Below are positions 42,044 through 64,000 of a stretch of 64,000 bases of DNA, piece after piece (position 1 is the stretch's first letter; each line of letters begins with the position of its first letter). The notes beneath the pieces were generated by a model, which saw only the letters and a program-made list of their open reading frames with translations, searched no databases and was not told where the DNA came from. Both the position numbers and the translations under genes were made by a program. Source of the stretch: Escherichia coli (GTDB lineage Bacteria > Pseudomonadota > Gammaproteobacteria > Enterobacterales > Enterobacteriaceae); assembly GCF_011045215.1 (NCBI RefSeq), contig NZ_CP049201.1. One strand, given 5' to 3'.

Positions 42044-42119
42044 GCCGATATAGCTCAGTTGGTAGAGCAGCGCATTCGTAATGCGAAGGTCGTAGGTTCG
42101 ACTCCTATTATCGGCACCA
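42044..42119 (+). tRNA. thrW: tRNA-Thr (anticodon CGU)
   Basis: GCCGATATAGCTCAGTTGGTAGAGCAGCGCATTCGTAATGCGAAGGTCGTAGGTTCGACTCCTATTATCGGCACCA, cloverleaf with CGT anticodon and 3' CCA. Confidence 0.9.
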
Positions 42120-54093: not shown

Positions 54094-55425
54094 TTACTGG
54101 ATGAATGACATTTGATTAATATATTTTATCAATAACTCTCTGGGTGTAGTACTCCAAAAATTTAGGTGTTCATAATCAGTATAAACATTGGTGAATTTTT
54201 TAAGTTCTTCATCACTTTTAGGGGCAAATCGCTCATTAAGAGTAATACTGTCTTTAATTATTCCGAAGAATACAATAGATATTTCAGGAATTTGCGATCT
54301 TCTCTCATAAGAATAAGGTATTTCTTTTATGTTAAGCAGATCTGCTAAATGAGATATAGATTCTGCGGTAATTTCTTGTTTTAGTTTTTCCTTGTCACCA
54401 AAGCAATGTATGAAGACAGCTACGACAAAGATCTTATTTATTAAAGGATCACTGCTTTTGTACTCATCGTCGTTTAATAGTTGAAAAATGTTAAGATTGC
54501 GTGAAAAAGTTTGTGTTTCACGTAAGGATAAGTTGGTTCGTTGAATTAAATCACGGATAAATCTACCAGATAAACTATTAATTTCATTTAATGATTTTGT
54601 CTTGTCTACAAGGTAATTCCAATATATAACAGATGTTTTACATACGACGTGACCATTTATTAAACATGTGTCTGGAAGCGTGATGGTATATTTTATAAAC
54701 TTGTCAAGATACTTTTGTGAGTTAATACTATAACCATAAATATGATTTATCGATGCTTTTAATTGTTCTGTGTTTGTAACTAAAATAAAAAAGACATTAT
54801 TGATGTCAAAAATGTGTTTTATTGTTTCAATGACATTTGTTGAAAAACTCGGCTTACATCGGTCTAATTCATCAATTATAATTACTATCTTTTGACTTTC
54901 TGAAATGCTTTCGATGCAAGATTTAAGTGAATTTATGTTTTTCTCTGATTCCATATGGTCTTCAAGCAAATTTTCAATAGTCCCATCTATTGCTGCATTG
55001 CTTGCTTTCTTCATCGCATCTTGGAATTCTTCGGAAACTTCACTAGCCTCCTGTCGTAAAAACCAACCTGCACCAGCTTTTAGTACCGTTTTTAAACCAA
55101 AGCGAATTGCAGGAAGAGATCTCTTAATGAAGTGTTGTTTTTCTTCCTCAGGTAAAATGCTGGCAATTGCAGAGGTTATGAGAAGTAATGGAGATTCTGC
55201 ATGATCCCCTTTAAAGGCATCAATATAAACAACTTTAGATTCAGTTTCTTGCTCAATAATGAGATTTTTCAGTTTGATACTAAATTCTGTTTTCCCTGTT
55301 CCCCATGCGCCGTCTATTACCAGTGGTGAAATGTCTGCCTCTGGTTTTAGCAACTTGATGATATTTTCAGCGATGTTTCTGCGTTGGAACTCGTCACGTT
55401 CAGTGAAAGATAGTGTATCTAACAT
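54094..55425 (-). CDS. KAP-family P-loop NTPase (prophage cargo; candidate defense protein)
   Basis: 443 aa; Walker A DGAWGTGKT, Walker B IIIDELDR; AT-rich; antisense to the late operon. Confidence 0.75.
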   Translation of the reverse strand: MLDTLSFTERDEFQRRNIAENIIKLLKPEADISPLVIDGAWGTGKTEFSIKLKNLIIEQETESKVVYIDAFKGDHAESPLLLITSAIASILPEEEKQHFIKRSLPAIRFGLKTVLKAGAGWFLRQEASEVSEEFQDAMKKASNAAIDGTIENLLEDHMESEKNINSLKSCIESISESQKIVIIIDELDRCKPSFSTNVIETIKHIFDINNVFFILVTNTEQLKASINHIYGYSINSQKYLDKFIKYTITLPDTCLINGHVVCKTSVIYWNYLVDKTKSLNEINSLSGRFIRDLIQRTNLSLRETQTFSRNLNIFQLLNDDEYKSSDPLINKIFVVAVFIHCFGDKEKLKQEITAESISHLADLLNIKEIPYSYERRSQIPEISIVFFGIIKDSITLNERFAPKSDEELKKFTNVYTDYEHLNFWSTTPRELLIKYINQMSFIQ

Positions 55426-56973: not shown

Positions 56974-57582
56974 AAGAGGCAGATTGATCGTGTTTTCGAA
57001 GTGTTATACCACGCCCGTTCTGTTAATTTGGCAAAATCTGTTCTGATGCAATGAGTATCGAAAGATTTATTGGACTGGTTGCTTTGGTTATCACTGTTAT
57101 CGCTGGAGTTGTTGGCCTAGGGCGTATCCGTGGCACTAGTAAAAGAAGAGGTTAAAACTGCTCTGTTATACACTGAAGTTAACGCAGCGGCTAAGCACTC
57201 AGCAGCAGGACACCGTGTAGAGGCAACGGAAGAGGCCAGAAATATACAGCAGACTATTAACCATATTCCTGGTGACTCTGTTGAGCGCGGTATGCATAAG
57301 AAATACAAACGTACAATTTGAAGTGGTATATTTTTCTTGTTAGTAGATGAATATAATATACCACACAGAATACGATATAATTATTGCTCATGCTTACCTA
57401 AATATGAAAAACAATAAAGTTATAAGTAGACAAGTGTTTTGTTACTTTTAATAATTGATGTGATGTATATATTAAGATTGAAAAATTTAATCATTCTTTC
57501 CACATATAAATTAAGTGGTTCCCTTAGCTTGTCATTTTTGATGATAAGTGAGAGAATATGAACATTATATGATGGAGATAAT

Positions 57583-57894
57583 ATGTCAAACATAAAAATC
57601 AAACAAGCTATTGAAAAGATTGCGGAGTTCAGAGCAGCATCTGCTGCGATGGCTGATGCTCACATGGTTCTTATTACAGAGCTATTGAACTCAATTGAGG
57701 ATATCCGCAAAAACTCTGGTGATAATCTCTCTGAGTTTGAAAAAGGACAGGTTGCTCTCTACATAAAAATTAGCCCAGTTGTGAAAAATGGAATTTCGAG
57801 TATTGAAAAATATAATGAGTCTTTAAGTTCAGACTATGTTGAGGCTATGAACTCCTTATCTAAAATTGCGGGAGGGAATTCAAATGTCGATTGA
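57583..57894 (+). CDS. hypothetical protein (first gene of AT-rich three-gene cargo operon)
   Basis: 103-aa ORF with RBS, predicted helical; AT-rich. Confidence 0.4.
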   Translation: MSNIKIKQAIEKIAEFRAASAAMADAHMVLITELLNSIEDIRKNSGDNLSEFEKGQVALYIKISPVVKNGISSIEKYNESLSSDYVEAMNSLSKIAGGNSNVD

Positions 57895-58270
57895 AGATGT
57901 TGGAAGCATCCTTGATAGATTAAAAGTAGCCAGGATCGAAAATAAAAAAATTGAAGAGTCAGCTGGAAAAGCAGAGGAAAATGCTGTTAACTCTAAGCAT
58001 ACTGATGGTAAAACACGAAGCGCCTTAACTATTACGTTTCTCTGGTTCTTTTTTTGCCTTCTTATTTTTAGCTGTCTTTTTGTTCTTTGGTATAATAATT
58101 CTGTTGTGAATTGGGCTTTAGAGTTAAAGAGCAAAGGTGTTGATGATTACGTTCAATATTTAAAGCCACTCGAGCTGGAAAAGGTATTGTCAATAATGAT
58201 TACTGCCCTTGGTACTTCATTAGGATTTATAATTGGGTATTATTTTAAGGATAAAGAAAATCATTCTTAA
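57884..58270 (+). CDS. hypothetical two-TM membrane protein
   Basis: Start MSIEDVG overlapping upstream stop; two hydrophobic helices (LTITFLWFFFCLLIFSCLFVLWY, VLSIMITALGTSLGFIIGYYF). Confidence 0.4.
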   Translation: MSIEDVGSILDRLKVARIENKKIEESAGKAEENAVNSKHTDGKTRSALTITFLWFFFCLLIFSCLFVLWYNNSVVNWALELKSKGVDDYVQYLKPLELEKVLSIMITALGTSLGFIIGYYFKDKENHS

Positions 58271-58315
58271 TATAGAGTTATCTCTAAAGATAACGAATTT
58301 TAATAGGAGGGTAGA

Positions 58316-58618
58316 ATGTCTGAACTGAATTATGAAGCAATAGGTCGCTGCAAAATCCTTAATGAAAAGATCAAAGATCTTCATGCTGAACGAATGAAAG
58401 CTATTGGTGATTTACGTACTGCTGTCTATGCCCTTCATCAGAAAGGGAATGTAAACCTCATCCCACCAGAAATTGTTGAATTCAACCCCCAATCGCTTAC
58501 ATCCCTTGTAGAGAAGGTTGGTCACTATGATGGTGAGCTGATGCGAGCTGTACATGAGTACAACAACTGGTGTGTAGAAGCAGGCGAGAAACCCGTAAAA
58601 CTTATAAAGCTAGACTGA
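58316..58618 (+). CDS. hypothetical protein
   Basis: 100-aa ORF with GGAGG RBS; followed by hairpin plus T-run at about 58630-58665. Confidence 0.4.
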   Translation: MSELNYEAIGRCKILNEKIKDLHAERMKAIGDLRTAVYALHQKGNVNLIPPEIVEFNPQSLTSLVEKVGHYDGELMRAVHEYNNWCVEAGEKPVKLIKLD

Positions 58619-58703
58619 AACAACAAATTTATGCAAATCATTAGCCTCGCACATGCGGGGCTTTTTTATGCGCACCACACATGCACATCAAAGAGAGTCT
58701 TCA

Positions 58704-59054
58704 ATGCCGCCACGAATCCCAAAAGCCTGCCGTGTTCGCGGTTGCCGCCATACCACGACTGACCCGTCAGGCTACTGCGAAAGCCACAAAAGCGAAGGCT
58801 GGAAGCAATACAAACCTAGACAATCCCGTCATCAGCGCGGCTACGGTTCGAAGTGGGACAGTATCCGCGCGCGTGTCCTGAAGCGTGACAAAGGCCTGTG
58901 TCAGTTATGTCTGCGTGCCGGTGTGGTGCGTGAGGCGAAAGCCGTTGACCACATCATCCCTAAAGCGCATGGCGGCACTGATGCCGACTGTAATCTGCAG
59001 AGTCTGTGCTGGCCGTGTCATAAGGCGAAGACGGCCCGTGAACGGCTGAAGTGA
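58704..59054 (+). CDS. HNH endonuclease (terminase-associated)
   Basis: Cys-rich HNH motif (CQLCLRAG...VDHIIPKAHGGTD...NLQSLCWPCHKAK). Confidence 0.8.
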   Translation: MPPRIPKACRVRGCRHTTTDPSGYCESHKSEGWKQYKPRQSRHQRGYGSKWDSIRARVLKRDKGLCQLCLRAGVVREAKAVDHIIPKAHGGTDADCNLQSLCWPCHKAKTARERLK

Positions 59055-59179
59055 TAATAATTCTCAACTGTCTGAGGGGAGGGGCGGGTCAAATCCCTGT
59101 GACCTGACGTCTTCCGGACTGCCCGCCCCATCGTTTTTTTATACCCGCGAAAAATGAAATTTAACCAGGAGTGCCGCAT

Positions 59180-59674
59180 ATGGCTGGAACGGCGGGGCGT
59201 TCCGGGCGTCGCCCCAAGCCAACGGCGCGCAAGGCGCTGGCCGGAAACCCCGGCAAGCGAGCCCTGAACAAAGATGAACCTGTTTTTACGCCCATCAAAG
59301 GTGTTGAGCCACCGGAGTGGTTCGCAGAAGAAGATCTCCCTCTCGCCACGATCATGTGGCAACTGACAACCAAAGAACTCTGCGGTCAGGGCCTGCTGTG
59401 CGTGACTGACCTGGCGGTACTTGAGCGGTGGTGCGTGGCCTATGAGTTCTGGCGACGTGCCGTGAAAAATATTGCCAGCCAGGGCAACACCATCACCGGT
59501 GCAATGGGCGGCAGGGTCAAAAACCCGGAGCTGACCGCCAAGAAAGAACAGGAGTCCGAGATGAGCAGCACGGGGGCAATGCTCGGACTCGACCCCAGCA
59601 GCCGCCAGCGTCTGATAGGCCTGGCGGGGCAGAAGAAAGCCACTAACCCGTTTCTGAAAATCATCGAATCATGA
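59180..59674 (+). CDS. terS: terminase small subunit (P27/HK97 type)
   Basis: Start [14 protein letters not shown] typical of P27-family TerS; immediately upstream of terL. Confidence 0.75.
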
Positions 59675-61404
59675 GCCGGAAATCTTACCCCAACGTAAAT
59701 GCTGCCAATCAGTATGCCCGTGATGTCGTGCGGGGAAAGATTGTGGCCTGCCATTTTGTGATTCAGGCCTGCCAGCGCCATCTTGATGACCTGATGGCGG
59801 AAAAAAGTAAGTCGTTTCGTTACCGCTTCGACAAGGACCTGGCTGAACGGGCCGCCAAATTTATTCAGCTGTTGCCGCACACCAAGGGTGAGTGGGCATT
59901 TAAGAGGATGCCCATCACGCTGGAGCCGTGGCAGCTCTTTGTGATCTGCTGCGCGTTTGGCTGGGTCAATAAAGGCTCCCGGCTGCGCCGCTTCCGTGAG
60001 GTGTATACCGAAATCCCCCGTAAGAACGGCAAATCGGCAATCTCTGCCGGTGTCGCCCTGTATTGTTTTGCCTGTGATAACGAGTTTGGCGCGGAAGTGT
60101 ATTCCGGTGCCACGACAGAGAAACAGGCGTGGGAAGTCTTTCGCCCGGCGCGACTGATGTGTAAACGCACACCCATGCTGACGGAAGCGTTCGGGATTGA
60201 GGTTAACGCCTCAAACATGAACCGTCCGGAGGATGGCGCGCGGTTTGAACCGCTGATCGGTAACCCCGGTGATGGATCATCACCCCACTGTGCGGTGGTG
60301 GATGAATATCACGAGCACGCCACCGATGCGCTTTACACCACGATGCTTACCGGGATGGGGGCGCGACGTCAGCCACTGATGTGGGCCATTACTACTGCCG
60401 GGTACAACATTGAGGGGCCGTGCTACGACAAACGGCGGGAAGTTATCGAGATGCTCAACGGTTCGGTACCCAACGATGAACTGTTCGGGATCATCTATAC
60501 CGTTGACGAAGGTGACGACTGGACCAACCCACAGGTGCTGGAAAAAGCCAACCCGAATATCGGGGTGTCGGTTTACCGTGAGTTTTTGTTAAGTCAGCAA
60601 CAGCGTGCGAAAAATAACGCCCGTCTGGCAAACGTCTTTAAAACAAAACACCTCAATATCTGGGTGTCGGCGCGTTCGGCGTATTTCAACCTGGTGAGCT
60701 GGCAGAGCTGCGAGGATAAATCACTGACTCTTGAGCAATTCGAGGGGCAGCCGTGCATTCTGGCCTTTGACCTGGCGCGTAAACTGGATATGAACAGCAT
60801 GGCGCGACTTTATACCCGCGAGATTGACGGTAAAACGCATTACTACAGTGTGGCCCCGCGTTTCTGGGTACCGTATGACACGGTGTACAGCGTCGAGAAA
60901 AATGAAGATCGCCGGACAGCCGAACGCTTTCAGAAATGGGTGGAAATGGGCGTCCTGACCGTTACCGATGGTGCAGAGGTGGATTATCGCTACATCCTCG
61001 AAGAGGCCAAAGCGGCGAACAAAATCAGCCCGGTCAGCGAGTCACCCATCGACCCCTTCGGGGCGACCGGGCTGTCACATGACCTTGCTGATGAAGACCT
61101 GAATCCCGTCACTATCTTCCAGAACTTCACCAATATGTCCGATCCGATGAAAGAGCTGGAAGCAGCGATTGAATCGGGACGTTTTCATCATGACGGCAAT
61201 CCCATCATGACCTGGTGTATCGGCAACGTGGTCGGCAAAAACATGCCGGGTAACGATGATGTGGTGAAACCCGTCAAAGAGCAGGCGGAAAACAAAATTG
61301 ACGGTGCAGTTGCGCTGATTATGGCGGTTGGCAGAGCCATGCTGTACGAGAAAGAAGACACGCTGTCTGATCACATTGAGTCCTACGGGATCCGCTCGCT
61401 TTAA
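59671..61404 (+). CDS. terL: terminase large subunit
   Basis: 577 aa, ATPase Walker A-like (IPRKNGKS) and C-terminal nuclease region. Confidence 0.85.
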
Positions 61405-63481: not shown

Positions 63482-64000
63482 ATGGCGGTTGATATTAAAG
63501 ATGTCGAACAGGTCGCGCAGGAGCTGCAGCAGAAGTTTGACGACTTCAAAGCAAAGAACGACAAGCGCGTGGATGCGATTGAGCAGGAAAAAGGCAAGCT
63601 TGCCGGGCAGGTGGAAACCCTGAACGGGAAACTCAGCGAGCTGGAAAATCTCAAAAGCGACCTTGAAAAAGAGCTGCTTGAGCTGAAACGTCCGGCTGGT
63701 GGAGCGCAAAATAAACTGGCCACCGAGCATAAAGAGGCGTTTGTGGGCTTCCTGCGTAAAGGCCGTGAAGACGGTCTGCGCGATCTGGAGCGTAAGGCAT
63801 TGCAGGTGGGTACCGATGAAGACGGTGGCTACGCCGTGCCGGAAGAACTGGATCGCAACATTCTTAACCTGCTGAAAGATGAAGTGGTGATGCGTCAGGA
63901 AGCCACGGTGATCACCGTTGGCGGTTCCGACTACAAAAAACTGGTGAATCTGGGCGGTACGGCTTCCGGATGGGTGGGGGAAACGGATACGCGATCCCAG
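63482..64000 (+). CDS. major capsid protein (HK97 fold), 3' end beyond window
   Basis: ATG at 63482 with AGGAG RBS; coiled-coil delta-domain-like N-terminus; open to window edge, so absent from the complete-ORF track. Confidence 0.65.
   Translation, partial: MAVDIKDVEQVAQELQQKFDDFKAKNDKRVDAIEQEKGKLAGQVETLNGKLSELENLKSDLEKELLELKRPAGGAQNKLATEHKEAFVGFLRKGREDGLRDLERKALQVGTDEDGGYAVPEELDRNILNLLKDEVVMRQEATVITVGGSDYKKLVNLGGTASGWVGETDTRSQ

Follow-up and report, generated by a model that had tools for sequence, protein, structure and literature searches.

A very probable SfV/SfI-type cos site between the HNH endonuclease and small terminase genes of an Escherichia coli prophage

The non-coding gap that separates an HNH endonuclease gene from the small terminase gene terS in an Escherichia coli prophage raises two questions: whether phage DNA is cut there for packaging, and what part a GC-rich inverted repeat and a run of T residues within it might play. 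The gap occupies positions 59055-59179 of the window, by which we mean the whole stretch of 64,000 nucleotides that was analysed, and is bounded by the HNH stop codon at 59052-59054 and the terS ATG at 59180. An earlier note, reasoning from the arrangement of HK97-like phages, had proposed that this gap holds a cos site or packaging initiation region.

Genes around the gap follow the HK97-like order of HNH, cos, terS, terL, portal and S78 prohead protease. The upstream gene encodes a packaging-associated, gp74-like HNH endonuclease (58704-59054, plus strand; Pfam HNH, E=2.7e-14; PHROG 144), and its N-terminal 42 amino acids are 45% identical to those of HK97 gp74. Its mechanically called open reading frame starts at 58653, but a 351-nt coding sequence is annotated in SfI and in E. 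coli VTB97420v, and judged from these annotations the true start is 58704. Downstream, terS (59180-59674, plus strand) encodes a small terminase of the P27 family (Terminase_4), and by our reading of the sequence its ATG is preceded at a distance of 8 nt by the Shine-Dalgarno motif AGGAG (59167-59171, plus strand). It is followed by terL (59671-61404, plus strand), which encodes an HK97-type large terminase with both ATPase and nuclease regions (Pfam TerL_ATPase and TerL_nuclease) and matches the crystal structure of HK97 TerL, 6Z6D, at E=3.4e-26. The gap therefore has the HK97-type, HNH-associated placement, lying between HNH and terS with an HK97-type terL directly downstream. Gene order and the match to 6Z6D support the HK97-like reading of the earlier note.

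Within the gap, positions 59120-59129 (plus strand; TGCCCGCCCC) are an exact match to the mapped 10-nt cohesive end of Shigella phage SfI and represent the putative cosN equivalent. Run-off sequencing of SfI virion DNA, compared with the prophage, found the 10 nt 5'-TGCCCGCCCC-3' to be absent and so identified them as the cohesive end (PMC3636060). The SfI record terminates in ...GGACTGCCCGCCCC (...CTGCCCGCCCC) and restarts with GTCGTTTTTTT, and window positions 59116-59140 read GGAC TGCCCGCCCC ATCGTTTTTTT. Numbering from the cut, with +1 at 59130, the window differs from SfV at 2 of 131 positions (-75 to +56) and from SfI at 2 of 110 (-54 to +56), the +1 base being A in the window and SfV and G in SfI. 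Megablast against phage records returned 96-98% identity to Shigella phages SfI, SfII, SfIV and SfV, and several phages of E. coli and Salmonella gave matches in this range as well. The linear records of the four Shigella phages all start within the gap, at window positions 59055 (SfII), 59113 (SfIV and SfV) and 59130 (SfI). The announcement of the SfII genome places cos at bp 59-125, equivalent to window positions 59113-59179, and this announcement and the SfIV paper both describe the cos as common to these phages. The window TerS is 98% identical to the SfV/SfI-type TerS, Megablast identity to SfV/SfI is 97-98%, and the combination of a near-identical cos core and terS identifies the site as that of an SfV/SfI-like prophage.

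These identities make it very probable that an SfV/SfI-like (e14-like) temperate myovirus prophage, integrated beside tRNA-Thr, has its cos site in the gap and that the site works by the mechanism proposed below. The placement of cos in the HNH-terS gap is borne out by the SfI match and by flanks near-identical to those of SfV, SfI, SfII and SfIV; because the cohesive end equals one mapped on SfI virions, we take the cos reading to be correct but already known. A different mode of packaging, in which headful (pac) packaging rather than cos cutting starts in the gap, appears exceedingly improbable. Pac sites also often lie just upstream of terS, and nothing more specific speaks for one here. 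By contrast, the prophage has a TerL of the HK97 cos type and an HNH partner gene, and SfI has defined ends, which its authors contrast with the pac phages Sf6 and SfX (PMC3636060).

Variation among related loci was unevenly distributed across the site. Loci retrieved by TerS similarity were all 99-100% identical and serve as a record of polymorphism, not of covariation; since such near-identical loci are unfit for covariation analysis, divergent relatives were taken by tblastn of the phage collection. Across 77 near-identical IMG/VR loci, the spacer between an upstream G-rich box (the G-box, discussed below) and the cut site (59094-59115) varied at 13 of 22 columns, compared with 1 of 14 at the cut site, and positions 59116-59179 as a whole held 3 variable columns out of 64. 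Polymorphism counts upstream of 59076 were discarded because indels shift the ungapped register there. The spacer could not be aligned across lineages. Directly 5' of the cohesive end lies a conserved GGAC (59116-59119, plus strand), of whose GAC (-13 to -11) the A and C occur in all seven divergent lineages and the G in six.

A run-off read copies its template to that template's 5' end. Both SfI run-off reads lack the 10 nt, leaving a gap, and the overhangs would therefore be 3'-protruding, since 5' overhangs would give a 10-nt overlap. We infer the same polarity for the window, with the top strand cut after 59129 and the bottom strand between 59119 and 59120. HK97 likewise has 10-nt 3' overhangs (PMC11331095, PMC9410871), although one of these papers elsewhere gives '12-nt' (PMC9410871). 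Burkholderia phage phi644-2 has ten-base 3' extensions, with a right end of 5'-CGCCCGCTTC-3' that was used as cos in phiE125 (PMC2920897).

An alignment anchored at the cut and comprising the window, SfI/SfV, two Klebsiella groups, Burkholderia phiBtTUL1a, Moraxella Mcat30, Serratia OS31 and HK97 contained zero gaps. The phi644-2/phiE125 extension CGCCCGCTTC and the ten bases that close the HK97 record, CGCCGCCAAA, fall in the register of the window's cohesive end, and all are preceded by GAC. Across the aligned lineages the overhang begins with (C/T)GCC, and the start of terS lies at +50/+51 in both HK97 and the window. The register of Pseudomonas phage D3 rests on its record ends plus a presumed 9-base 3' end. 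The ends of the Burkholderia vB_PR1 record are defined by assembly and were set aside as uninformative for the cos register.

Compared individually, two relatives outside the SfV group share different parts of the site with the window. In Burkholderia phages phiE125, phi1026b and phi644-2 the overhang aligns base for base with that of the window, with 7 of 10 bases identical. The phiE125 type carries GGGAC before the overhang and a TerS 50% identical to the window's, and the distance from the cut to the CCCGCGAAA box is 11 nt in both. Upstream, this type has a G-box variant, GGGGAGGGGGGGAG, followed by AAAAAG, and shows no complementarity between G-box and overhang. HK97 resembles the window in a G-run with TCAAATC that ends 41 nt before the cut, in a GAC followed by the overhang, in an A/T tract, and in homologous TerL and HNH proteins. 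It differs in its overhang, CGCCGCCAAA, and in having no inverted repeat between G-box and overhang.

A further difference from HK97 concerns the small terminase and points to its likely binding site. A putative TerS recognition site, equivalent to cosB, lies at 59141-59163 (plus strand), with the core CCGCGAAA at 59145-59152 (+16 to +23). The minimal TerS site of HK97 spans +15 to +29 downstream of the cut and involves specific contacts plus an A-tract (PMC11331095), and the equivalent stretch of the window holds ATACCCGCGAAAAAT. The core at +16 to +23 was identical in all six lineages with a P27-type TerS, whose proteins are 33-88% identical, whereas HK97 has CTAACCCGATTTTTT as its downstream box. 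HK97 TerS (gp1) belongs to another sequence family than the P27/Terminase_4 protein of the window, with no Pfam hit and no BLASTP similarity to it. Serratia OS31 (L095/L100) and Klebsiella Kp4886-3 (L096/L101) combine features of both types: their HNH proteins are 72-73% identical to HK97 gp74 and their upstream spacer is HK97-like, yet they have a P27-type TerS and the downstream box CCGCGAAA. Since the box tracks the P27-type TerS family, 59141-59163 is likely the TerS site, a reading that draws support from this natural swap. The two mosaics also suggest that cos is modular and that recombination takes place at the cut site or close to it.

Vibrio phage H2 (L091), whose TerS is 49% identical, has a different layout, with HNH abutting terS across a 6-nt gap and no G-box. 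Its match to CCGCGAAA falls within the HNH coding sequence and was rejected as probably coincidental. This lineage must have its cos at another place, or one that overlaps the coding sequence of HNH.

The inverted repeat and T-run to which the earlier note drew attention are both present in the gap. The arms, GGGGCGGG (59081-59088) and CCCGCCCC (59122-59129), are complementary at 8 of 8 positions and lie 33 nt apart; a run of seven T residues (59134-59140, +5 to +11, plus strand) begins 4 nt after the right arm and is part of an A/T tract. Only two all-G/C 8-mer inverted repeats with a loop of at most 60 nt occur in the 64-kb window. When the 125-nt gap was shuffled 2000 times with dinucleotides preserved, a perfect inverted repeat of at least 8 nt arose in 151 cases (7.6%), so the repeat alone is not remarkable.

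Such a repeat followed by T residues could be read as a Rho-independent terminator of the HNH or late-lysis transcript. The candidate lies 27 nt after the HNH stop codon, and RNA from 59076-59145 folds with an 8-bp G/C stem (-26.8 kcal/mol) followed by U7. However, the geometry is not that of a terminator, with a 33-nt loop and 4 nt between stem and U-run, and a terminator scan made no call at the repeat. The RNA fold of the window scored only z=-1.7, and the folds of relatives scored about 0. Rfam covariance models gave zero matches in 59055-59179, and a structured RNA in the gap was rejected on that basis. Nor do the arms change together: in natural variants (L008, L031) the left arm is GGGGGAGG while the right arm stays as it is, relatives with determined ends have lost the pairing, and arm pairing in a 19-sequence alignment was 80.5% compared with 78.9% in column shuffles, 81 out of 500 shuffles being as high. 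The T-run is replaced in relatives by AATTTTTT, AATTTTC or AAAAAATTTTT, whatever upstream stem exists, and what persists in the A/T tract (+5 to +11) is T at +9 in seven of seven lineages and at +7 in six of seven. Furthermore, terS and terL lie downstream and must be transcribed from the same late operon, and a far better terminator-like hairpin, strong and followed by T6, is found at 58643-58662 (z=-3.4), just upstream of the true HNH start.

We consider a terminator very unlikely on these grounds, and the hairpin flavour that the repeat had been given did not hold up, in view of the geometry, the z-scores and the uncompensated left-arm variants. The repeat is not a hairpin or terminator signal, and hairpin formation is not required. 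Rather, the sticky end supplies the right arm with its last eight bases, and the left arm forms the 3' portion of a separate, conserved element, the G-box. Similarly, the T-run is a section of the A/T-rich tract that is conserved directly behind the cut, and not a terminator U-tract.

The G-box, GGGGAGGGGCGGG followed by TCAAA (59076-59093, plus strand), is a conserved upstream element of cos that holds the left arm. In ungapped register, G occurs at -49, -48, -47 and -43 and AAA at -39 to -37 in all seven lineages, HK97 included. In phages of Escherichia/Shigella, Klebsiella and Moraxella and in Pseudomonas D3, the form GGGGNGGGGCGGGTCAAA(A) stands about 31 bp before the inferred bottom-strand nick, and degenerate forms occur in Burkholderia phages and HK97. 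At the record end of D3 (L104) the sequence is GGGGTGGGGCGGGTCAAAAC, one base nearer that end. The G-box pattern occurs once in the 64-kb window.

To cover more distant phages, IMG/VR was scanned with GGGGNGGGGCGGGTCAAAA, a pattern of 18 specified bases that deliberately excludes the abundant SfV type. At least 120 contigs matched, compared with only a few that we estimate chance would give, and the matches listed form 14 clusters with unalignable flanks. Among the clusters listed, 13 of 14 had an HNH match upstream of the box, the remaining one having its box at the contig edge. The distance from the end of the HNH match to the box is usually 4-160 nt, but 665 nt in one cluster. An HK97- or SfV-type terL followed about 0.5-1 kb downstream, again in 13 of the 14 clusters listed with a contig edge as the exception. 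Wherever the contigs listed extend far enough, the box lies between the HNH match and the terS/terL region. The TerS type, by contrast, varies among the G-box clusters listed, being P27-like, gp1-like, D3-like or undetected.

We found no occurrence of the G-box motif string in the open-access literature searched, and the papers on HK97 cos that we consulted discuss only the downstream TerS site, not upstream elements (PMC11331095, PMC9410871). Conservation of the box between HNH and terS in very divergent phages is thus a mildly new point. As a speculation, the G-box could be an undescribed cos sub-site, acting either as an analogue of cosQ, that is, a termination or bottom-strand-nick signal, or as a docking site for HNH or TerL; we offer this tentatively and regard it as possible but on balance doubtful. 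If it were true, cos would be modular, its upstream half fitted to HNH/TerL and its downstream half to TerS, and a cosQ-like G-box would be a signal sensed as the last DNA enters the portal.

The comparison with cosQ draws on the tripartite logic of lambda (cosQ-cosN-cosB), in which an upstream element, a nick site and a downstream small-terminase site lie by the terS equivalent. The window G-box is on the packaged-last side of the cut, as is lambda cosQ. Lambda itself has 12-nt 5' overhangs, a Nu1/gpA terminase and an IHF-dependent cosB, and is not known to have an HNH partner. The window instead has a Terminase_4 TerS, an HK97-type TerL and a 10-nt cohesive end, and its cos falls outside the lambda family.

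Complementarity between the G-box and the cut region also allows a reading in which the repeat is a genuine dyad-symmetric DNA signal needed for cos cleavage: the same G-rich motif would occur on both strands at a distance of 41 bp, and two copies of a single protein, HNH or TerL, would bind to it. In 8 of 19 lineages the cut region, 31-44 nt downstream of the G-box, contains a perfect complement to 6-8 nt of it, with a shuffle-based Fisher p of 0.0014. In a control with mirrored G-boxes, the true box had 6 wins, 13 ties and 0 losses. However, the signal is mostly one of G-run versus C-run composition, with the mirror control differing by only 1-2 nt, and complementarity is 5 nt or less in HK97, a Burkholderia phiE125-type phage and Klebsiella phages. 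Because HK97 and phi644-2/phiE125 have determined ends but no dyad, the dyad is not essential for the class. It is recurrent but dispensable, and we regard a requirement for it in cleavage as quite unlikely.

Taken as a cos site of the SfV/SfI type, the gap would function as follows. After induction, concatemeric phage DNA would be cut at the gap by terminase; by homology with HK97, the TerL nuclease would make the cut with the aid of the neighbouring HNH protein, and TerS would position the complex. In the literature consulted, stimulation of cos cleavage by HNH has been shown for HK97 gp74 only (PMC11331095, PMC9410871). Identity with mapped relatives predicts that the staggered cut leaves the 10-base end TGCCCGCCCC (59120-59129). 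TerS may bind at about +12 to +29 (59141-59158), with CCGCGAAA as the core. Packaging would then run rightwards from 59130 into terS, terL and beyond until the next cos terminates it. The function of packaging initiation named in the earlier note stands but is incomplete, as such sites also serve termination, which is established for HK97 (PMC9410871, PMC10359639). The predicted cuts would fix the ends of the prophage genome, with the left end at 59130 and the right end at 59129 with a 10-nt extension. Such ends aid annotation, judgement of prophage integrity, and prediction of the DNA that could be mobilised by the phage or by a satellite carrying the same cos.

The wider context of the locus agrees with assignment to the SfV group. 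A tRNA-Thr(CGT) gene lies at window positions 42044-42119, and in the closest complete genome, E. coli VTB97420v (98.9% identity), the order is proA, tRNA-Thr, integrase. Gene order there continues with Q, a KAP NTPase, holin, endolysin and spanin genes, four hypothetical genes, HNH, terS and terL, followed by HK97-type head genes and then contractile tail genes. The window tRNA and the proA order in the closest genome place integration at the thrW tRNA-Thr beside proA, and the prophage is an SfV/e14-like myovirus at thrW, the site used by Shigella serotype-converting phages. SfI, SfV, SfII and SfIV have the same 10-nt end and the same order of HNH, cos, terS and terL, and the SfI/SfV group shares the thrW integration locus by proA with the window's closest genome. 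The window differs from the SfV group in representing another host strain or prophage copy and in having an AT-rich moron upstream of HNH, where the preceding gene is 27 nt away in SfV and 61 nt away in ST64B.

Queried with positions 57000-60000, 1230 of 5426 complete E. coli genomes gave a match, mostly to the HNH-terS-terL portion only, and a single one of the 5426 matched at 80% coverage or more. The cos is an ordinary, already-known site in a prophage module of those 1230 genomes. The locus holds little new biology, since mapping in SfI revealed its cohesive end in 2013 and its mechanism follows the HK97 paradigm. Researchers on HK97-type terminases may find use in the conserved G-box, the TerS-family-specific CCGCGAAA box and the natural swaps of cos halves.

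An intact cos could also be an unused relic, in a cryptic prophage whose site never functions in the host. In E. coli, prophages of the e14-like and SfV-like kinds are frequently defective; the early region of the closest complete genome contains an IS1 and a frameshifted gene, and the window stops at 64000, which puts the tail genes out of reach. Against this, cos and the HNH, terS, terL, portal and protease genes are all full length in the window, and the cos core is invariant among relatives. We consider a relic fairly unlikely; it concerns activity rather than identity, and the element would still be a cos site.

Several features beside the cos site are of separate interest. An AT-rich insert (57150-58620, 25-38% GC) lies between the spanin gene and HNH, and its three small open reading frames at 57583-57894, 57866-58270 and 58316-58618 match PHROGs without an assigned function, with 57866-58270 also giving a weak match to the PADLOC family 2TM_IV. 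In another AT-rich island, between the Q antiterminator and holin genes, a 443-aa KAP-family NTPase is encoded at 54094-55425 (minus strand). It matches the PADLOC candidate defence family PDC-S20 (E=9e-177) and, by this homology, is probably a prophage-borne defence gene. The hairpin region upstream of HNH (58580-58673) overlaps a sub-threshold match to Rfam STnc100 (23.8 bits, compared with a gathering score of 47). Within codons 3-7 of terS there is an inverted second copy of the overhang sequence (GGCGGGGCG; 59124-59135 versus 59188-59199), and the 5' region of terS also contains a 22-nt inverted repeat that is 73% complementary (59192-59213 versus 59233-59254). Finally, in the Salmonella phage As1 scaffold (L098), HNH is truncated near codon 65 and, at about nt 490-510, joined directly to CTCGAATTTTT..., which corresponds to position +1 of the predicted left genome end. 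Either this junction is an assembly artefact arising at a physical DNA end, or the upstream half of cos has really been deleted.
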